Below, piece after piece: positions 263 to 8,897 of a stretch of 51,011 nt of DNA (positions within the stretch are counted from its first letter, which is position 1; each line of letters begins with the position of its first letter). The notes below the pieces were generated by a model. It made no database searches and was not told the DNA's origin. It worked only from the letters and a program-made list of their open reading frames with translations. Position numbers and translations under genes: made by a program. Source of the stretch: Acidimicrobiales bacterium (GTDB taxonomy: Bacteria; Actinomycetota; Acidimicrobiia; Acidimicrobiales; SZUA-35); the NCBI GenBank assembly GCA_024644005.1, contig JAHELU010000004.1, positions 1 through 51,011 on the forward strand. Reading direction: 5' to 3'.

Positions 263-862
263 TCAGGGGTTGTTGCTCGTCTGCTCGGCATCGAACGTCA
301 GCGTCGCCGTGGTCGCGCCACCCTGACCGCTGGTGGCAGCCAGCGGGAGCGTCACGTTCAGGCAGAGGTCTTCAAACGCCGCCGGGCCGAGGGTGCGGTC
401 GCCCGGATCGGCTCCCGGAGCGTTCGAGCCGAACAGCGCCGTGGTGGCCACGGTCCCGAGCGGGCCGCTGTAGAGCGTGGCGCCGCCCACGTTCCAGTTG
501 GCATCGTCGCAGCTCGCCACGCCGCTGCGGACGGTCAGGACGAGCTCTGCGGCCAGTGTGTCCTCGGTCGTCGTCGAGGTCGCGGCATAACGGAGATCGA
601 GGGATCCTGCGTTGGTGATCCGCAGCGGTGCCGTCACCTGGTCGCCCGGCACCATGGTCGACATCGTGACGACGGCGCTCGCCGGGCTGGCGGCTATGTC
701 GATCGTGCCGGTCGTGAACGCGTTCGATCCGACGGCCTCGCTGTCGGTGAAGAGCGCGAGCGACGACACGGTGACGGTGGCCACCCCGACCAACAGCACG
801 GCCAGGGTCAGGACGATCTTGATGAGACCGACACTGCTGGTCTCGGGTCTTGTCTCGCGCAT
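263..862 (-). CDS. TasA/CalY (camelysin)-like secreted protein with SipW-type signal peptide (subunit 1, subtype B), 199 aa
   Basis: ATG at 862 with GGAGGAG RBS at 871-877; hydrophobic leader ending SSLA|LFTD, then NAFTTGTIDI, MVPGD, ITNAGSLDLRY and C-terminal LTFDAEQ, all typical of TasA-family proteins. Confidence 0.85.
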   Translation of the reverse strand: MRETRPETSSVGLIKIVLTLAVLLVGVATVTVSSLALFTDSEAVGSNAFTTGTIDIAASPASAVVTMSTMVPGDQVTAPLRITNAGSLDLRYAATSTTTEDTLAAELVLTVRSGVASCDDANWNVGGATLYSGPLGTVATTALFGSNAPGADPGDRTLGPAAFEDLCLNVTLPLAATSGQGGATTATLTFDAEQTSNNP

Positions 863-1548
863 GGTCCGTTCTCCTCCAGTCCTATCGACCGGGCCCGATC
901 GGTGCTGAGCGCGCGAAGGTGGGGATGGTTCGATCGGCCCAGGGGGAACCGGTCCAGTCGAGCGCGCCGGTGTCGCCAGATCCGGCGCAGCACCAGCGTC
1001 GACTGCACCCCCACCGCCAGCAGCACCACCCCACCGCCGATCAGCGGGGACCCCAGGGCGAGCAGCAACCGCCCGACCCCGGGGACGACCCATCGCCCGA
1101 CGAGCTCCCTGGGTCGGAGGTGGTAGGGGGCTGCATCGATCTGGCGGTTGGCGTCGCCCTGCGTGGTGGCGTAGACGTGGCTTCCGACGCGGTTCAGGTC
1201 GACGACCCGATGGGTGATCGTGCTTCGCCCTTCCCGCCGCATCACGAGGATGTCGCCGACCTCGACCGCGCCGGTCGGCTCGGCGATCACCAGCGAGCCG
1301 GTCGGGACCGCCGGTGTCATGCTCCCCGTCGTGACGACGACCAGTCGGTAACCGGCGGCCAGCGCGCCGACCCCGACGACGGCCAGCCCGATGGACACGA
1401 CACCGACGGTGCGGCAGGCGACCCGGCCGATCCGTCCGCTCTCTCCGATCCGGCCGATCCGTCTGCTCCCGCCCATCCATCGCGGTCGCTCGATCGATGG
1501 CTCCGGGGGGCTCGACGATCGCCGTCCCCGCCGGCGAGTCGCCGTCAC
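808..1548 (-). CDS. sipW: Signal peptidase I, SipW/S26B (ER-type)
   Basis: N-terminal TM, VVTTGSMTP (catalytic Ser), GDILV, ITHRVV (His), TQGDAN...D, C-terminal TM; GTG start overlaps the stop of the upstream TasA-like gene (GTGA). Confidence 0.88.
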   Translation of the reverse strand: MTATRRRGRRSSSPPEPSIERPRWMGGSRRIGRIGESGRIGRVACRTVGVVSIGLAVVGVGALAAGYRLVVVTTGSMTPAVPTGSLVIAEPTGAVEVGDILVMRREGRSTITHRVVDLNRVGSHVYATTQGDANRQIDAAPYHLRPRELVGRWVVPGVGRLLLALGSPLIGGGVVLLAVGVQSTLVLRRIWRHRRARLDRFPLGRSNHPHLRALSTDRARSIGLEENGPCARQDPRPAVSVSSRSS

Positions 1549-2135
1549 GAGTCGTCGCTCTCGATGGCGTGCTCCGCGGCCACGGTCAGCTCGTGGCGCG
1601 ACGCCACGCCCTGGGCCGAATCGGGGGCGTCGATGGCCATCGTGGCGGCAAAGCAGACCAGCTCGACCGCCCCAGGATCGATGGTGCGATCGCCGGGATC
1701 CTCACCGCTGGCGGGATCGCCGAGGAGGGCCACGGAGCCGGCCGTCAGCCGTCGGTCACTCACGAGGGCCTCGGCCGGCGACGGCCCCTGCTCGCAGGCC
1801 GAGGCCGTCCAGATGTCCCAGCTGAGCAGGCCCGTCAACGGCTGGGCCGATGTCTCGAAGCTCAGTGAGTAGCGCAGCGGCAGCGAACCGGCGTTGAGCA
1901 GCTCGACCGATCCGACCATCCGATCCCCCGGCGCGATGTTCGACACGACGATCGGGGTCGTCCTCGTCCCGACCTCTATGTCCAGGGTCCCCGCATCGAG
2001 GCGATAGGTGCCGAGGCGCTGGGCGGCCCCGAACGCGGCCTGTCCCCGCTGGGCCCTCACGAGGATCACCCCGGGGACGATCAGTGCCGCCGTGACGACG
2101 AGAGCGCCGATGACGACGAGCGCCTGCCGCCTCAT
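1545..2135 (-). CDS. TasA/CalY-like secreted protein (subunit 2, subtype B), 196 aa
   Basis: ATG at 2135 after GGAAGG; leader MRRQALVVIGALVV...GQA|AFG, then AGTLDI, IAPGD, LLNAGSLPLRY, DPGDRT; clear paralog of 263-862. Confidence 0.8.
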   Translation of the reverse strand: MRRQALVVIGALVVTAALIVPGVILVRAQRGQAAFGAAQRLGTYRLDAGTLDIEVGTRTTPIVVSNIAPGDRMVGSVELLNAGSLPLRYSLSFETSAQPLTGLLSWDIWTASACEQGPSPAEALVSDRRLTAGSVALLGDPASGEDPGDRTIDPGAVELVCFAATMAIDAPDSAQGVASRHELTVAAEHAIESDDS

Positions 2136-2179
2136 TGGTCTACCTTCCGATCCACAGCGACGACGGTCCAGCCAGGGAT

Positions 2180-2229: not shown

Positions 2230-2844
2230 TCACGACGGGACCGCCTCCCAGACGAAGTCGGCGGTCGACGACCGACCGACCGCCTGTCGCTCGTCCAGCA
2301 CCTCGAACTGGAACCGGAACGACACCGTGGCCCGCCCGTTGCGGATCGTGCCCACCGGGGTGGCGCCCTGGGCGGCCAGCTGGGAGAGGGTGCCGGAGAA
2401 CAAGCGCTCGTCCGGCCGGAAGTCACCGCACGAGTCGAACCCTGCGCCGGTGCCCTTCTCGACATGCACACGGAGGTACCGAGCCAACTCGCCCGTCGTG
2501 TTGGCGACGAGCGTCAGCTCGACCGGGAGTATGGTCCCGGCGTAGTCGATCCGGATGCACCGCTCCACGGGCTGCTCGGGGCCCATGTTCTCGAGGCGGA
2601 CCAGCGATCGGCCCTGATCGTCGTCGACGAGGGTGATGGTCCCCGTCTCGAACGAGTTACCGCTCACCGTGCCCTCCTGGCGCAACGTCTCGGCCGACGT
2701 GGTGACCACGAGGGTGGCGACGATCAGCGACGAGATGGCGGCGGCGAACGCCCGGCCCGTCGACTTGGCCAGCCGCCGCTCCTGGTGCAGTCCGGTCTCC
2801 TCCGCCGATTCTGATGCCAGCACGTCGTCCAGTGAGCGGGCCAT
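2230..2844 (-). CDS. TasA-like secreted/membrane-anchored protein (subunit 3, subtype A), 204 aa
   Basis: ATG overlaps the stop of the fusion gene (TGATG); hydrophobic segment then GNSFETGTITL, MGPEQPVERCIRIDYAGT, DSCGDFR, ADFVWEA. Confidence 0.75.
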   Translation of the reverse strand: MARSLDDVLASESAEETGLHQERRLAKSTGRAFAAAISSLIVATLVVTTSAETLRQEGTVSGNSFETGTITLVDDDQGRSLVRLENMGPEQPVERCIRIDYAGTILPVELTLVANTTGELARYLRVHVEKGTGAGFDSCGDFRPDERLFSGTLSQLAAQGATPVGTIRNGRATVSFRFQFEVLDERQAVGRSSTADFVWEAVPS

Positions 2845-5768
2845 CAGGCGGTCTCCACCCGATCCCGACCCCGCTCGACCATGCCGTCGATGTCCGACGC
2901 AGGGAGCGGACGGTGGAACACGAAGCCCTGGACCAGGTGACATCCGACCCCGGCGACCGTCGACAGCTGATCCTCGGTCTCGACGCCCTCGGCGATGACC
3001 ACGAGGTCGAGCTTCCGAGCGAGGTCGACGATCGACTCCAGGACGATCCGCTCCGTCTCCGAGTCGGCGCTGTTGACGACCAGCATGCGGTCGAGCTTCA
3101 CCCCGACCACCGGCAGCTTGTGGAGGAAGGCCAGCGACGTCTGCCCCTCGCCGAAGTCGTCGAGCAGCAGGCCCACCCCCAGCTCCCTCAGCGCATGCAT
3201 GTTGTCGAGGATCGCTCCCTGGTCGGGCCTGACCAGGCGCTCGCTGATCTCGATGAAGAGTCGGTCCGGCCCGAAGCCGGACTCGGCGATCGCCGTCGTC
3301 ACGTTCTCCATGAGCTCGGCCGACATCAGCTCTTCCGGTGAGGCGTTCACCGTCACGAACACGGATGAGTCGGGGTCGATGGTCCTCCACCTGGCCCCGT
3401 CCGATGCCGCCCGGTGGAGGATCCAGCGATTCAGGCGGGGCCCGATCCCCACGTCGTCGGCGAGGGCGATGAGCTCGTCCGGCCTCACGGGCCCGTAGAC
3501 CGGATGCGTCCAACGGATGAGGGCCTCGACACCCACCAGGCGATCGATCGCAACATCGATCACCGGCTGGTAGAGCAGGGTCAGCGAGCCGTCGTCCACC
3601 GCCGTCGCCAGGTCGACTGCGAGCTGGGCCCGACGCCCCAGCTCGACGTCGAGCTCCTGGTCGTAGACGACGTACCCGGCCGACCCACGGGCCCGTTTCT
3701 TGGCGCGATACATCGCGACGTCGGCTCGTCGCAGGAGCTCGCTCTGGTCGATGCCGGCCTCTGCGACGGCGATGCCGACGCTGGCGGCGATCGACACCGT
3801 CTCCTGGCCGAGCAGGAACGGTTCCGCCAATCGCTGCTGGATCCGGGTCGCCAGCTCGCTGGCCCGCTGGGGGGGCACCCTACCCTGCAGCAACACGGTG
3901 AACTCGTCACCGCCGAGGCGGGCCACCAGGTCACCGGCCCTCACGGCCTCCCCCAGCCGGGTGGCAACCAGCTTCAGGAGCTCGTCGCCGGCCTCGTGGC
4001 CGAGACGGTCGTTGACGGGCTTGAAGCCGTCGAGGTCGAGGAACAGCAGGATGGGGCTGGCGTCGGGGCTCCGCAGCTCCTCCTCCAGAGCCCCGAGGAG
4101 GCGCGTGCGGTTGGGGAGGCCGGTGAGGGCATCGTGCATCGCCTGGTGCTCGAGCTCGTCGCTGACCGTGGTGAGCTCACCGAGGAGCCGGTCGTTGCGA
4201 AGGGCTACCGCTGCCTGGCCGGCCAGTAGGCGGAGCGCCTCGAAGCGATGGTTGTCGGCTGTGCCGTCGCGACTCCCGGCCCGTAGGACCAGTCGGGCTC
4301 CTGGTTCGTCGTTGACGGTCAGCGCCACCACCGAGGCCAGTCTCGCCTCCTCGAGGGCGGCCGACTCGGCCGGCTCCGGGTCGTCGGCGGTCACGAGGAC
4401 GGCGGAGGAGTCGAGATCGACCGGCCGCAACCCGCTCCCTGCAGCGCCGGGCGCAGGCAGGGTGCCGTCGCCGTCGACGGCCATGATCTGCCACGGACCG
4501 ACGCCGTCGCCGGTGACGATGTCGGCCACGTCGAACCCCAGCTCGAGCGATGCATCGACGATGGCCGAGACGTGGAGATCGCCCAGCCGCGTCACCTCGT
4601 GACCCGTGGCCATGACCCGCTCGAGCATGTGGCCCCGCAGCACCGCTTGGTCGGTCGCTCCTCGCTGCGTCAGCACGTCTCCCAGCAGCTGCTCTGCCAG
4701 ATAGCTGCCGGGCACCACGACGAGGAACAGGACGCTGAGCTGGTCGAGCACCCGTTCCAGCTCGGTGATCAGCGGTTCGGGGCCAGGTACCAGCTCCGAC
4801 ATCGCAATCCGGGCCCCGAGGGTGATCACGGTCAGGATCATCCAGTGCACGAGGGCCCCGACGAGGCCGAATCGCATCGCCGCCTCGATCACGGGCAGGG
4901 CGAACAGCACCCAGCCGATCCCGGACGTCCCGGCCGCCGTGGCCAGGAAGACCACGAGCACCGTGTCGACGGCGAGCTCCAGCAGTGCCGCCCACCTCGT
5001 CTCGATCTTCCATCGCCTGGTCGCAACGATCGACCAGAGATTGACCGCTCCGAGGGCGCCGAGGCCGATCGCCAGCATCGGGACTCGACCGGAGTCGGTG
5101 CCGGCAACGTCGAACCGTGACGGGTCGATGGCGAACTGGACGATCATCAGCACGCCGACGAGGACGCGGACCCGCCACAGGCCCACCTGGGCCGTCGGGA
5201 GCTGGCGCTCGGCGGACAGGTCATGGCGGCGCCGCAGCCGCTGGACGGCGGAGGCGCCCACCACTGCGAAGCTCCCGATCGTCATCGCCCCCCAGGCGAC
5301 GAGCGGAACCACGTCGGCGCGAGCGAACCAGACCACCGGAAGGCCGAGCAGTGGCACCACGAGCTGACCTGTCCCCGCCACCGCTTCCGGGCGGACCGAA
5401 TCGACGTCTGGCGTCGGGTTGCCGTCGCCCTTCGTCACGTACGCGTCGTCCTCGACCGAGAAGATCCGGTGGACGATCAGCTCACCGCCCGGTCGCTCGA
5501 AGACGATGACGGCCCGCTGGGCCAGCAGCTCCGCAGGGTGCTCGTCGATGAGGAGCACGTCTCCCGCCTGCAGCGTCGGCCGCATCGATCCGCTGGTAAC
5601 GACGACCGGCGACCACCCGGCCAGGACCATGCCGAGCACGACCCACAGAGCCATGAGCACGACCAGGTAGACGTAGAGCCAGGCAATCAGCACGGCGGTG
5701 GGCACGACGGCCCGAGCTGCGAGACGCCCCACCCGCCCGAGGGGCCACGAGCGCACGGAGGCCCTCAT
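2844..5768 (-). CDS. Fusion protein: SipW/S26B signal peptidase + multi-TM region + GAF-like region + GGDEF diguanylate cyclase + EAL phosphodiesterase, 974 aa
   Basis: One uninterrupted frame from ATG 5768 (ATGA overlap with the upstream gene). Peptidase motifs VTSGSMRP, IVHRI, TKGDGN...D; several hydrophobic helices; LAGQAAVALRN; HDALTGLPNR, DLDGFKPVND, RAGD-x5-GGDEF; YQP, VEALIRW, IEISE, DDFGEG, KLDR, AEGVET, QGF. Confidence 0.9.
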   Translation of the reverse strand: MRASVRSWPLGRVGRLAARAVVPTAVLIAWLYVYLVVLMALWVVLGMVLAGWSPVVVTSGSMRPTLQAGDVLLIDEHPAELLAQRAVIVFERPGGELIVHRIFSVEDDAYVTKGDGNPTPDVDSVRPEAVAGTGQLVVPLLGLPVVWFARADVVPLVAWGAMTIGSFAVVGASAVQRLRRRHDLSAERQLPTAQVGLWRVRVLVGVLMIVQFAIDPSRFDVAGTDSGRVPMLAIGLGALGAVNLWSIVATRRWKIETRWAALLELAVDTVLVVFLATAAGTSGIGWVLFALPVIEAAMRFGLVGALVHWMILTVITLGARIAMSELVPGPEPLITELERVLDQLSVLFLVVVPGSYLAEQLLGDVLTQRGATDQAVLRGHMLERVMATGHEVTRLGDLHVSAIVDASLELGFDVADIVTGDGVGPWQIMAVDGDGTLPAPGAAGSGLRPVDLDSSAVLVTADDPEPAESAALEEARLASVVALTVNDEPGARLVLRAGSRDGTADNHRFEALRLLAGQAAVALRNDRLLGELTTVSDELEHQAMHDALTGLPNRTRLLGALEEELRSPDASPILLFLDLDGFKPVNDRLGHEAGDELLKLVATRLGEAVRAGDLVARLGGDEFTVLLQGRVPPQRASELATRIQQRLAEPFLLGQETVSIAASVGIAVAEAGIDQSELLRRADVAMYRAKKRARGSAGYVVYDQELDVELGRRAQLAVDLATAVDDGSLTLLYQPVIDVAIDRLVGVEALIRWTHPVYGPVRPDELIALADDVGIGPRLNRWILHRAASDGARWRTIDPDSSVFVTVNASPEELMSAELMENVTTAIAESGFGPDRLFIEISERLVRPDQGAILDNMHALRELGVGLLLDDFGEGQTSLAFLHKLPVVGVKLDRMLVVNSADSETERIVLESIVDLARKLDLVVIAEGVETEDQLSTVAGVGCHLVQGFVFHRPLPASDIDGMVERGRDRVETA

Positions 5769-6391
5769 GGTCTGGCCTCGATCACGATCCAGAACTCGGT
5801 GCCGAGGCCCTGGGCGGCATTGTCGTCGTCGACCTCCACGATGGTCCGGAAGGTGGTGGTGAGCCCGGATCCGATGTGGGAGCTGAGATCGATACCGTCG
5901 GCGAACGACCCGTGGTCGATCGTCAGGTCGGTGGATCTTCCCTGATAGAGCCGTTCGCTGGTTCGGAAGTCGGCGCAGTCGGTCGCCTCTCCGGTTCCGA
6001 GCTCGAACGTGACCGTGACGAGGTCGCCGAGTCCGGTGTCGGCCCCGCGGTGGCCGTGGAGCCGGATCCGAGCGTCGTCGAGCGTTCCCGAGTAGGTGAG
6101 CTGGAGGCACCGCTCGATGGGCCGCCCCGGGAACACCCTGTCGTCGTCGACCAGCAGCTCGACGGCGGCACTGCCGTCGGAGCCGGTCAAGTCGAGATCG
6201 ATCGCAACGGTTTGGAAGAGGCTGTTCGTGTTCTCGGTCGACGCCGAGAACCTTGCCGAGGCGGTCCGGGCACCGGACCAGACGACGACCAGTGCCGCAA
6301 GCAGGAACAGGGACGCGGCGACGACAGCGCCCTGCGCCCCACCTCGTCGGAGACGAGAGGGAACAGCTCCAGACCCTTCCGATCCAGTAAT
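5765..6391 (-). CDS. TasA-like secreted protein (subunit 4, subtype A); start codon uncertain
   Basis: Leader RLRRGG...VVAASLFLLAALVVVWSGARTASA|RFSA, then NSLFQTVAIDL, FPGRPIERCLQLTYSGT, TDCADFR; paralog of 2230-2844. No in-frame ATG/GTG/TTG ahead of the leader; 6391 is an ATT downstream of AGGAG (6402-6406). Confidence 0.7.
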   Translation of the reverse strand: MTGSEGSGAVPSRLRRGGAQGAVVAASLFLLAALVVVWSGARTASARFSASTENTNSLFQTVAIDLDLTGSDGSAAVELLVDDDRVFPGRPIERCLQLTYSGTLDDARIRLHGHRGADTGLGDLVTVTFELGTGEATDCADFRTSERLYQGRSTDLTIDHGSFADGIDLSSHIGSGLTTTFRTIVEVDDDNAAQGLGTEFWIVIEARP

Positions 6392-6523
6392 GGCGATCAG
6401 GCTCCTGTTCAGCGAATTCGCTGTACCCGTCGGCAGCTCGATCGCCAGTGTGACGATCCGCCGGATCCGCAGCCGGGCGGCGCTCGGTCGACGGCATGTT
6501 GGTTCGGTTGTCCAACCAGGGCC

Positions 6524-7777
6524 ATGATTGTGGTCGTGATCCTCCGCCAGATCGCCGTCGCCGTCGCCGTCGCTGTCGCTGTGCTCGTGGTCGTAGCGAA
6601 CTGTGGTCGAGGTGACCTGGAGGCCACGGGACCGGCGCAGGGTGGCACCTCCTCTTCCACCACCACCGCCGCCCTGACCACGGCCGCTGGAGCGACGTCG
6701 ACCCCCGGCCCGACGGCGGGCTCGACGTCGACCGACCTCGAAGCGACGACCACGACCAGCCGGCAGCGCGGCTTCACGATGGCCTTCACCGGGGATCTGC
6801 TGCTCCACAGTCGGGTGAACGCGATGGCGGCGGCCAATGCGGGCGGCCAGCCCGGGCGCGACTACGACTACCGCCCGATGCTCCAGCCCATCCGACCGCT
6901 GGTCGAGGCGGCCGACTGGGCAGTCTGCCACATGGAGGTCAACCTCTCGGCCGACGGCACTCGGTTGGAGCCGTACCCCACGTTCCGGGCTCCGGGTCAG
7001 ATCGCAGTCGACATCGCCGACATCGGCTACGACTCCTGCAGCGTGGCCTCGAACCACATCCTCGATCACGGCATCGAAGGCGTTGCCGAGACCTTACAGG
7101 TACTCGACCGAGCGGGGCTCGGGGCCACCGGAGCGGCACGATCGAGGGCCGAGGCGTCGCGCCAGATCTGGATCGAGCTCGGCGGTCTCCGTGTCGCCCA
7201 CCTCGCCTACACCTACTGGTTCAACGGGTTCACCGTCCCCGCAGACGCCTCGTGGACGTCGAACGGCATCGACGAGGACCGAATCCTGGCCGATGCCTCG
7301 GCGGCCCGTGCCGACGGTGCGGACTTCGTGGTCGTCTCGCTGCACTGGGGTGACCAGTACGACCACCGCCCCAACCGGCAGCAGCGAGAGCTCGGTCCCC
7401 GGGTCCTCTCATCGCCGGACGTCGATCTGCTGGTGGGCCACCACGCCCACGTCGTGCAGCCGATCGACAACCTCGATGGCGAGTGGTTGATCTACGGTCT
7501 CGGCAACCTCCTGTCCAACAGCCCTCAGCCCGCTCGCCGGGACGAGTTGCTGGTGCTGGTCACCGTCTCGGAGGGCCCGACCGGTGAGTTGACGTCCGAG
7601 CTGGAGGTGATCCCACTCCATCTGGATCACTCGACCCTCACGGTGCATCCCAGCAACCCGCTGACCAGGCCACCATCGACGGCGCCCGATCTCGCCGCCG
7701 ACCTCGACGCCAGCTGGGCCCGGGTCAACCGGATCCTCGACACCGGGACCGGCCGGGACGCGCTCGTCATCGGCTGA
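6524..7777 (+). CDS. CapA/PgsA family (poly-gamma-glutamate capsule biosynthesis-like) metallophosphatase-fold protein, secreted or lipoprotein
   Basis: Signal peptide ending VANC, Thr/Ser-rich linker, FTGDLLLH, CHME, ASNHILDHG, SLHWG, GHHAHV, IYGLGN. Confidence 0.88.
   Translation: MIVVVILRQIAVAVAVAVAVLVVVANCGRGDLEATGPAQGGTSSSTTTAALTTAAGATSTPGPTAGSTSTDLEATTTTSRQRGFTMAFTGDLLLHSRVNAMAAANAGGQPGRDYDYRPMLQPIRPLVEAADWAVCHMEVNLSADGTRLEPYPTFRAPGQIAVDIADIGYDSCSVASNHILDHGIEGVAETLQVLDRAGLGATGAARSRAEASRQIWIELGGLRVAHLAYTYWFNGFTVPADASWTSNGIDEDRILADASAARADGADFVVVSLHWGDQYDHRPNRQQRELGPRVLSSPDVDLLVGHHAHVVQPIDNLDGEWLIYGLGNLLSNSPQPARRDELLVLVTVSEGPTGELTSELEVIPLHLDHSTLTVHPSNPLTRPPSTAPDLAADLDASWARVNRILDTGTGRDALVIG
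6554..6583 (+). repeat. Hexamer tandem repeat (GCCGTC)3(GCTGTS)2 encoding Ala-Val runs in the CapA signal peptide
   Basis: Read directly; in-frame unit length. Confidence 0.7.
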
Positions 7778-7919
7778 GCCATGACGGGGCTCGTCGGCTG
7801 CGCCTGGCGCCGCTCGACCGACCACCGTCCCCATTCGTTCGTACGACAGGAAACGCGCGTCGAAATCGGCCATGATGACGACGGGCGATTCGAACCGGCG
7901 GCTCGAAGGATGGCGGACA

Positions 7920-8897
7920 ATGGGTCAGATGAAGGCGGTCGTCTACGACGAGTACTGCTCGCCCGACGGCTTGGAGCTGCGTGCGGTCGAGCGGCCCGTC
8001 ATCGGTGACGATGCGGTCCTGGTCCGGGTGATGGCCGCATCGGTCAACCCAGTCGACTGGCACCGTCTGACCGGCACACCGAGCATCGCCCGACTGGAGG
8101 CCGGGCTGCGGTCGCCGAAACGGCACATACCGGGATCGGACCTGGCGGGCCGGGTGGAGGCGATCGGCTCGGCGGTGGCCGGGTTCAAGCCGGGCGACGA
8201 GGTGTTCGGTACCGCCGAGGGCAGCCTCGCCGAGTACGTCGCCGTCACCGAGGACCGCATCGCCCACAAGCCGGTCAACCTGTCGATCGAGCAGGCGGCG
8301 GTGGTGCCGGTGGCAGGGCTCACCGCACTGCAGGGCCTCCGTGACTGCGCCAGGCTCGAGGCCGGCCAGAGGGTCCTGATAAACGGCGCTTCGGGCGGTG
8401 TCGGGACCTTCGCCGTCCAGATCGCAAAGGCATTCGGCGCCGAGGTGACCGGGGTCTGCAGCGGCGGCAACGTCGAGATGGTGCGGGCCATCGGCGCGGA
8501 CGACGTCGTCGACTACACCGCGACGGACTTCGAGGAGCGGGAGCAGCACTACGACGTGCTGTTCGACACGGTCGGCAACCGTCGGCTGTCGACCTGCCGA
8601 CGGACCCTGAAGCCGAAGGGGGTGTACGTCATGGTCGGTGGCCCGAGGACGAATCGCTGGTTGGGGCCCGTGGCCCGGGTCGTTGCCGGGCGACTGCTGT
8701 TCGCGCTGACCAGCGAGAAGTTCTCCACCTTCGTGGCCAAGGACGACGAGGACGATCTGCGGTTCCTGCGCGATCTGCTCGAGTCGGGGTCGGTCGTCCC
8801 GGTCATCGACCGTCGCTACGACCTGAGCGACACACAGCAAGCCTTCCAGTACTGGGAGCGGGGTCGGACGAGCGGCAAGATCCTCGTCACGGTCTGA
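7920..8897 (+). CDS. NAD(P)-dependent medium-chain dehydrogenase/reductase (quinone oxidoreductase-like)
   Basis: MKAVVYDEY, AASVNPVD, PGSDLAG, INGASGGVGTFAVQIAK, VIDRRY, GKILV; start 7920 or 7929. Confidence 0.9.
   Translation: MGQMKAVVYDEYCSPDGLELRAVERPVIGDDAVLVRVMAASVNPVDWHRLTGTPSIARLEAGLRSPKRHIPGSDLAGRVEAIGSAVAGFKPGDEVFGTAEGSLAEYVAVTEDRIAHKPVNLSIEQAAVVPVAGLTALQGLRDCARLEAGQRVLINGASGGVGTFAVQIAKAFGAEVTGVCSGGNVEMVRAIGADDVVDYTATDFEEREQHYDVLFDTVGNRRLSTCRRTLKPKGVYVMVGGPRTNRWLGPVARVVAGRLLFALTSEKFSTFVAKDDEDDLRFLRDLLESGSVVPVIDRRYDLSDTQQAFQYWERGRTSGKILVTV

Follow-up and report, generated by a model that had tools for sequence, protein, structure and literature searches.

The window, by which we mean the whole 51,011-nucleotide (nt) stretch that was analyzed (Acidimicrobiales bacterium, assembly GCA_024644005.1, contig JAHELU010000004.1), carries among genes for TasA-like fibre subunits a single gene that joins a SipW-like signal peptidase to a complete module for making and breaking the biofilm messenger c-di-GMP (bis-(3'-5')-cyclic dimeric guanosine monophosphate). 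Positions 2844 to 5768 of the minus strand translate as an uninterrupted frame of 974 codons with no stop. Judged from its sequence, the gene encodes a genuine membrane protein of two functions whose three catalytic centres are all intact, and it is built up of the following parts, where ER stands for endoplasmic reticulum and aa for amino acids.

2844 to 5768, minus strand: whole fusion gene (P0001), 974 aa, with peptidase, membrane domain, GAF, GGDEF, and EAL
5604 to 5768, minus strand: Arg-rich N-terminus and first membrane helix, the peptidase anchor, residues 1 to 55 (AlphaFold helix 10 to 50; hydropathy peak 26 to 44)
5319 to 5603, minus strand: ER/archaeal-type signal peptidase catalytic domain, residues 56 to 150 (TIGR02228; S61, H100, D115, D121)
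5217 to 5312, minus strand: second membrane helix, residues 153 to 184 (AlphaFold helix 153 to 184), then the Arg-rich loop RLRRRH
4683 to 5201, minus strand: membrane sensor bundle, residues 190 to 362, with five AlphaFold helices and probably six passes; start of the part that also exists unfused
4254 to 4682, minus strand: helical stalk and GAF domain, predicted cytoplasmic, residues 363 to 505 (VIA-align, Foldseek)
4137 to 4253, minus strand: long linker helix into GGDEF, residues 506 to 544 (AlphaFold helix 506 to 544)
3687 to 4142, minus strand: GGDEF domain, residues 543 to 694 (Pfam ID PF00990, 139.8 bits; GGDEF at 619 to 623, RxxD at 610 to 613)
2907 to 3614, minus strand: EAL domain, residues 719 to 954 (Pfam ID PF00563, 199.4 bits)

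The ATG at 5768 is the likely start, because it shares the bases ATGA with the TGA of the upstream gene and because relatives align only from residue 8 to 20 onward. The frame is open up to a TTG at 6515, a longer start that was rejected; the extra stretch overlaps the upstream gene in another frame. Besides the EAL and GGDEF domains, Pfam finds Peptidase_S26 at residues 34 to 104 (24.3 bits, cut-off 22.9), and eight membrane passes are predicted. The AlphaFold2 model of the whole chain, with 63 relatives as input, has a mean predicted local distance difference test (pLDDT) score of 89.8. It begins with a helix (residues 10 to 50), a beta-rich peptidase domain (53 to 138), and a second helix (153 to 184), continues with the helices 190 to 214, 225 to 252, 257 to 279, 285 to 324, and 333 to 394, and ends with an alpha/beta domain (396 to 499), the long helix 506 to 544, GGDEF, and EAL. 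The helices form a continuous chain from the peptidase to the GGDEF domain.

The peptidase part matches the NCBIfam model TIGR02228, "signal peptidase I, archaeal type", over residues 30 to 151 with 75.5 bits against a cut-off of 51.85. In the PDB sequence search, human SEC11C and SEC11A align to residues 35 to 121 (E value 3e-7), covering the SGSM, VHR, and KGD.N..D motifs, and the alignment places S61, H100, D115, and D121 at the SGSM, VHR, and KGDNN..DD motifs of SEC11A/C. We take these four to be the catalytic residues, with His, not Lys, as the base; SGSM occupies residues 59 to 62 (nt 5583 to 5594). The SipW equivalog NF046067 (cut-off 190 bits) is absent among the best 25 of 32 matching NCBIfam families, the weakest family listed there having 49.8 bits, and the fusion therefore lies below the SipW equivalog cut-off. 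The original prediction of a SipW-type peptidase thus stands as regards an ER/archaeal S26B enzyme, and falls short as regards the Bacillus SipW model. The catalytic domain is flanked by the helices 10 to 50 and 153 to 184 in the AlphaFold model, and both the N-terminus and the loop 176 to 201 are rich in Arg. The fused peptidase is most likely active, and it would face outward and remove the signal peptides of neighbouring TasA-like subunits.

The GGDEF motif lies at residues 619 to 623 (nt 3900 to 3914), with R610-A-G-D613, an RxxD I-site, five residues ahead of it, and the EAL motif at residues 748 to 750 (nt 3519 to 3527); the coordinates previously given for GGDEF, EAL, and SGSM are correct. 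For the EAL domain, we presume the metal-binding and catalytic residues to be the EAL Glu, an Asn, the ExxE pair, the DD pair, a Lys, a Glu, and a Gln. The sequence following DDFG is EGQTSL, a loop that differs from what we take to be its usual form. A Foldseek search with the whole model matched the tandem GGDEF-EAL structures PA0575, MorA, DosP, and RbdA. Since it gave GGDEF-EAL structures only, the middle part (residues 185 to 535) was folded separately with 12 orthologues (pLDDT 75.9). Here, residues of about 388 to 535 adopt a GAF fold, with VIA-align Z scores of 13.8 (root mean square deviation [rmsd] 3.2, 143 residues aligned), 13.1, and 12.6, followed by dozens more GAF chains down to Z 10, and the top Foldseek matches of the middle part are all GAF, so that the segment described as GAF-like can be named a GAF fold. 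No Pfam GAF family matches the fusion at E values up to 0.1; the unfused relative P0116, described below, scores 25.5 bits for GAF_2, under the cut-off of 28.6.

The single frame of 974 aa with peptidase, GGDEF, and EAL is conserved, and its three catalytic parts are each under selection, their catalytic residues being kept. In the alignment of full-length relatives, S61, H100, D115, D121, and all five GGDEF residues are found in 63 of 63, as are E748, E840, E843, D870, K891, and Q947 of the EAL domain; D871 is kept in 62, and N808 and E930 in 58 each. The RxxD at 610 to 613 occurs in just 2 of the 63, this protein and one other. The canonical I-site that had been proposed is thus present in this protein and is not a feature of the family, and since the motif is so rare, product inhibition or gating of processing through the I-site is dismissed as a family trait. 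In a wider set of 81 proteins aligning over peptidase, membrane part, and GAF, the Ser/His/Asp/Asp residues are kept in 78 and GGDEF in all 81. The divergent proteins P0096, P0110, and P0119 have lost the peptidase residues with GGDEF intact, P0119 also being without EAL. That the peptidase fold persists ahead of an intact GGDEF after catalytic residues have gone hints at a role for it in the c-di-GMP module besides cleavage. Outside the 81, P0104 appears by eye to have lost the key motifs of peptidase, GGDEF, and EAL altogether. The residue losses in these four proteins suggest a receptor or scaffold form.

Among genomes of the same genus, 16 of 24 encode the fusion as a full-length single frame without stops at 42 to 48% identity, two of the 16 being cut short. 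For the family, the query was the first 530 residues of the fusion, and in 36 of 87 further genomes it is matched over peptidase, membrane part, and GAF in one frame; these genomes are spread over six of 14 genera, and one of the frames has a TGA. One additional genome gives a two-piece match on one contig (G048:C24:19237-20606), in which query residues 10 to 151 and 260 to 529 lie 135 nt apart; from its layout, this may be a split or damaged copy. The fusion was found in 1 of 400 sampled genomes from elsewhere in the class, a genome that has the whole operon described below, and in 16 genomes from other families of the order no match begins before residue 267. A large protein collection holds 75 clusters, mostly of 950 to 1090 residues, from Acidimicrobiia, Acidimicrobiales, and Ilumatobacter metagenome bins, named, where a name is given, "signal peptidase I" or "EAL domain-containing protein".

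Contigs from public sequencing runs of three studies cover the gene with few base changes and zero insertions or deletions. The source sample may be among these runs. One such contig, from 4135 to 5480, spans the junction of peptidase and sensor and the whole region, 4200 to 5400, for which a missed stop or chimera had been considered; it is free of indels, and relatives have the same frame. A chimera or missed stop is ruled out by the stop-free relatives together with the indel-free public contigs.

The membrane bundle matches no Pfam family. Its alignment to the six-transmembrane domain of the cyclase ImcA (VIA-align Z 11.8, rmsd 4.5, 180 residues aligned) has a score that helical bundles can attain by chance and serves as a lead only, as do the language-model features 6TM_PilS (Pfam ID PF25323, 0.88) and MASE2 (0.85), both below 0.9. 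Its topology can be approached through the charges of the loops, averaged over the 63 relatives: the loop 176 to 201 has 7.35 Lys plus Arg and 2.24 Asp plus Glu, the loop 250 to 258 has 2.37 and 1.05, the middle of the long helix (296 to 303) has 1.65 and 0, and the loop 321 to 342 has 0.81 and 4.65. By the positive-inside rule, these values fit an N-terminus inside, the peptidase outside, a second helix leading back in, and then six passes, with a cytoplasmic GAF, GGDEF, and EAL. Such a charge-based topology would fit if residues 285 to 324 were a hairpin turning at R299-F-R. The expected arrangement of a peptidase outside and GGDEF-EAL inside therefore agrees with the loop charges, but not with the AlphaFold helix count, which is even.

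The part from the bundle onward also exists without a peptidase. In an exhaustive search of representative proteins, P0107, P0116, P0143, and others, with lengths of about 800 aa, can be aligned to the fusion starting at residue 191 (31 to 38% identity) and have GGDEF and EAL without the peptidase, and the same search finds many free peptidases of 170 to 200 residues. Because membrane part, GAF, GGDEF, and EAL exist alone, the fusion added a peptidase to a pre-existing independent sensor enzyme. Among 400 further genomes sampled from the phylum, such unfused enzymes occur in 3 of 10 genomes of one family (G529, G557, G583), and no SipW-like or TasA-like genes were found within about 8 kb of them. 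In a separate collection of genome contigs, the N-terminal part of the fusion had no match as query, and P0107 matched only an unrelated GGDEF-EAL gene; neither result enters the argument here.

SipW-type peptidases are also joined to the C-terminal domains RCC1, CBM96, or Laminin_G_3 (P0151, P0171, P0177, and P0183), indicating that C-terminal fusions to this peptidase type are frequent.

The fusion gene lies in an apparent operon with four genes for TasA-like subunits and a free second peptidase, as follows.

5765 to 6400, minus strand: TasA_up, TasA-like subunit gene; start uncertain, signal-peptide-like N-terminus, stop overlapping the ATG of the fusion
2230 to 2835, minus strand: TasA_B, TasA-like subunit gene, 8 nt downstream of the fusion and adjoining it in 12 of 12 orthologous loci
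1545 to 2138, minus strand: TasA_C, TasA-like subunit gene (camelysin/TasA, Pfam ID PF12389, 27.2 bits, cut-off 22.5), in 11 of 12 loci
808 to 1548, minus strand: SipW2, free second ER/archaeal-type signal peptidase (TIGR02228, 57.4 bits, cut-off 51.85), in 11 of 12 loci
263 to 871, minus strand: TasA_D, TasA-like subunit gene (PF12389, 42.3 bits; SipW-dependent signal peptide TIGR04088, 20.3 bits, cut-off 19)

The contig terminates beyond TasA_D. The gene order fusion, TasA_B, TasA_C, and SipW2 is retained across the 12 orthologous loci (12/12, 11/12, and 11/12), and a TasA_up orthologue, P0216, precedes the fusion in 11 of the 12 loci of relatives and matches the window at an E value of 2e-22. 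The location of the fusion among TasA-like subunit genes is borne out by the PF12389 matches of TasA_C and TasA_D; TasA_B and TasA_up are linked to the other TasA-like genes only by weak tblastn cross-matches, those of TasA_B being to TasA_D and TasA_up. A passage of one study (PMC4551309) describes SipW as the dedicated peptidase for TasA and TapA in Bacillus subtilis. SipW2 has 33% identity to the fused peptidase and scores 52.8 bits for the SipW equivalog, under the cut-off of 190.

TasA_up has zero in-frame ATG, GTG, or TTG codons between 6808 and 6190, its signal peptide begins near 6350, and an AGGAG stands just ahead of the in-frame codons CTG 6400, ATC 6397, and ATT 6391. Read from these codons, the copy of the gene in this genome either has a non-canonical start or is impaired.

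The operon's second peptidase lies, in 9 of 10 relatives, in one frame of 717 to 1449 aa, some of which end at a contig edge (for example, L017:4106-6730, minus strand; loci L016 to L025). These long frames combine a stretch rich in Arg with an internal signal peptide of the TasA type and a sizeable passenger, and in several relatives they extend into a Laminin_G_3/DUF2341 region, so that by its composition the long frame looks like a peptidase joined to its own substrate. Only a short form, 246 aa long, occurs in the window.

A gene for a PilZ-domain membrane protein (Pfam ID PF07238, 31.1 bits against a cut-off of 22.5) stands directly upstream of the TasA_up orthologue in 10 of the 12 orthologous loci, which adds support to the link between this operon and c-di-GMP. 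As predicted from domain content, the fibre-subunit operon in most relatives is one that also encodes a c-di-GMP receptor domain. An example is the frame L017:11497-14508 (minus strand; loci L016 to L025), a large membrane protein of 1003 aa. Its language-model features point to clusters with PilZ (36% of members) and glycosyltransferase family 2, which suggests, as a lead only, a glycosyltransferase-2/PilZ relative similar to BcsA; no glycosyltransferase domain is found in it by Pfam, and P0217, the PilZ protein of a relative, had no useful match by sequence in the PDB.

At the PilZ position of the relatives, the window has a PGA_cap (CapA-like) gene (6782 to 7777, plus strand, 216.6 bits), which is divergent from the operon and is followed by a zinc-type alcohol dehydrogenase-like gene (7872 to 8897, plus strand).

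In our proposed mechanism, the N-terminal SipW-like peptidase would work outside the membrane and cleave the signal peptides of the TasA-like subunits encoded around the fusion gene. The second membrane helix would tie it to a complete, older c-di-GMP module made of the six-pass bundle, GAF, a cyclase (GGDEF), and a phosphodiesterase (EAL), of which GAF, GGDEF, and EAL would lie in the cytoplasm. In other GGDEF/EAL proteins the domains N-terminal to the catalytic part are the input, and by this rule it is most likely the peptidase, bundle, and GAF that determine how c-di-GMP synthesis and degradation are balanced. The membrane load of fibre subunits or signal peptides could thereby be converted into a local c-di-GMP signal, whose receiver in most relatives would be the upstream-encoded PilZ membrane protein with its lead to glycosyltransferase family 2. 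We give about an even chance to the proposal in which the neighbouring subunits are cleaved by the fused peptidase, and in which this peptidase, the bundle, and GAF jointly adjust c-di-GMP turnover where export takes place. A more specific version is possible but, on balance, doubtful. Here, the peptidase and six-pass bundle would gauge the traffic of fibre subunits as PilS does, which senses pilin in the membrane; engagement of signal peptides would shift GGDEF/EAL, c-di-GMP would drive the PilZ glycosyltransferase-like protein, and polymer and fibres would be exported in step.

Several findings weigh against the proposed mechanism. TasA_up and TasA_B match no TasA model in Pfam or NCBIfam, and the window lacks the PilZ gene, which a search of the 83%-complete genome (G000) with a relative's PilZ query also failed to find. 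Residues 285 to 324 are drawn as a single 40-residue helix in both AlphaFold models, which leaves six helices, an even number, between an outside peptidase and an inside GAF, so that one of them must be a hairpin or non-spanning. As the unfused relatives lie away from SipW and TasA genes, there is no older sign of cooperation between the two halves. The free second peptidase, present in 11 of 12 loci, means that the fused one is not obviously required for processing. Moreover, GGDEF and EAL domains occur fused to a great many different partners, and co-expression can be the sole purpose of a fusion.

The main rival is co-localization without coupling, where both halves would be active and independent, the fusion fixing only their site, time, or stoichiometry, and the true input would be the ancestral signal of the bundle and GAF. 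In favour of this explanation, membrane part, GAF, GGDEF, and EAL make up a whole protein by themselves elsewhere, where they show no linkage to SipW or TasA genes; the operon also has a free peptidase, and the GAF fold is a common ligand sensor. Against it, the fusion is retained over six genera at 42 to 52% identity with a conserved Arg-rich linker and second helix, and the dead peptidase fold ahead of an intact GGDEF in some divergent members is hard to explain if the fold only cleaves. We consider co-localization alone rather doubtful.

Control could instead run from inside to outside in the style of LapD and LapG, with GGDEF-EAL reading c-di-GMP at the EAL site or I-site and switching the peptidase so that subunits would mature only at the right level. 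All 63 relatives have intact catalytic residues in GGDEF and EAL, unlike a LapD-type receptor, and although the GGDEF-EAL part of LapD is among the structural and hidden Markov model matches, the score for the LapD model is 134.6 bits, with the cut-off at 1020. The RxxD at the I-site position of this protein would suit such a reader, but its presence in just 2 of 63 makes it a poor guide to the family, and we regard this direction of control as improbable.

It is very improbable that the protein is a self-cleaving polyprotein, in which the peptidase would cut its own chain after the first bundle helix, behind an Arg-rich, signal-peptide-like stretch, to give two proteins. Residues 176 to 214 do have an n-region and an h-region, the second peptidase shares one frame with an internal TasA-type signal peptide and a passenger in 9 of 10 relatives, and other peptidase-passenger fusions (LamG, CBM96, RCC1) are known here. 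However, the helix in question aligns with the first helix of the unfused proteins and so is part of the ancestral bundle, it is followed by a conserved DPxRF instead of an AxA plus N.F..GT motif, and a cut would cost the sensor a membrane helix. That the peptidase domain is a non-catalytic binding module, as the loss of catalytic residues in 3 of 81 relatives might indicate, or that the frame is an assembly chimera is scarcely credible, given that this protein and all 63 close relatives have Ser/His/Asp/Asp, and given the same frame in 36 further genomes and the indel-free contigs of three studies, one of them across the junction, which exclude a chimera.

No paper describing the peptidase-GGDEF-EAL architecture was found in the open-access literature searched, including searches for Peptidase_S26 with GGDEF, signal peptidase domain with diguanylate cyclase, and SipW with c-di-GMP, in agreement with the initial impression that no described protein of this kind is known. 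Every part is known, and the combination is present in databases under automatic names such as "signal peptidase I". The analysis suggests that the export of fibres and the signalling behind biofilms are directly linked in a way not yet described.

It is an open question how bacteria adjust c-di-GMP to the matrix components that they actually export, and to our knowledge the ties of TasA-type fibres to c-di-GMP have so far been indirect. The fusion family offers a physical link of export and c-di-GMP in one chain that is accessible via simple mutants, and it comes with three natural controls, namely, the sensor enzyme without peptidase, the free peptidase in the operon, and those rare relatives whose peptidase fold is dead. 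The family also widens the range of TasA/SipW-type fibre systems to include Acidimicrobiia from marine and sediment settings, a lineage in which SipW-type peptidases are repeatedly fused to other proteins, likely substrates included. If the fusion does gauge subunit traffic, it would represent a feedback from secretion to second messenger within one polypeptide and the first signal peptidase known as a sensory input.

Among known systems, the fusion resembles SipW of Bacillus subtilis (tapA-sipW-tasA) in being an ER/archaeal-type Ser/His peptidase among TasA-like genes with SipW-type signal peptides. In contrast to Bacillus SipW, the peptidase makes up about one fifth of 974 aa and is followed by six passes, GAF, GGDEF, and EAL, the host is actinobacterial with four subunit paralogues and a second peptidase, and the SipW equivalog cut-off is missed. 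A second, regulatory role of SipW was reportedly described by Terra et al. in 2012.

With the membrane-bound tandem enzymes PA0575, MorA, RbdA/PA0861, and DosP, the fusion shares two intact GGDEF-EAL motifs and a helical linker from an N-terminal sensor; the Foldseek E values for membrane tandem GGDEF-EAL enzymes range from 6e-33 to 1e-28, with 35 to 38% identity to PA0575 and MorA. These enzymes have no peptidase, and their inputs are PAS, haem, or periplasmic domains. The unfused relatives of about 800 aa are closer, having the same bundle, GAF, GGDEF, and EAL, and differ in the missing peptidase and in the missing SipW/TasA-like genes within 8 kb. LapD is an outward-signalling c-di-GMP receptor that controls the periplasmic protease LapG, and as in the fusion, cytoplasmic c-di-GMP domains are linked to proteolysis of surface proteins outside the membrane. 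LapD, however, is degenerate and its protease is separate and of another family, whereas here the c-di-GMP domains look catalytic and a signal peptidase is fused.

For the membrane part, an excerpt of the description of ImcA (PMC10904736) gives a six-transmembrane domain followed by GGDEF. ImcA, the 6TM domain of PilS, and MASE2 all resemble the bundle in being compact and helical and placed directly before a cytoplasmic output, with no Pfam match for the bundle and with scores within the chance range. By analogy, PilS might be the closest model for how the fusion works.

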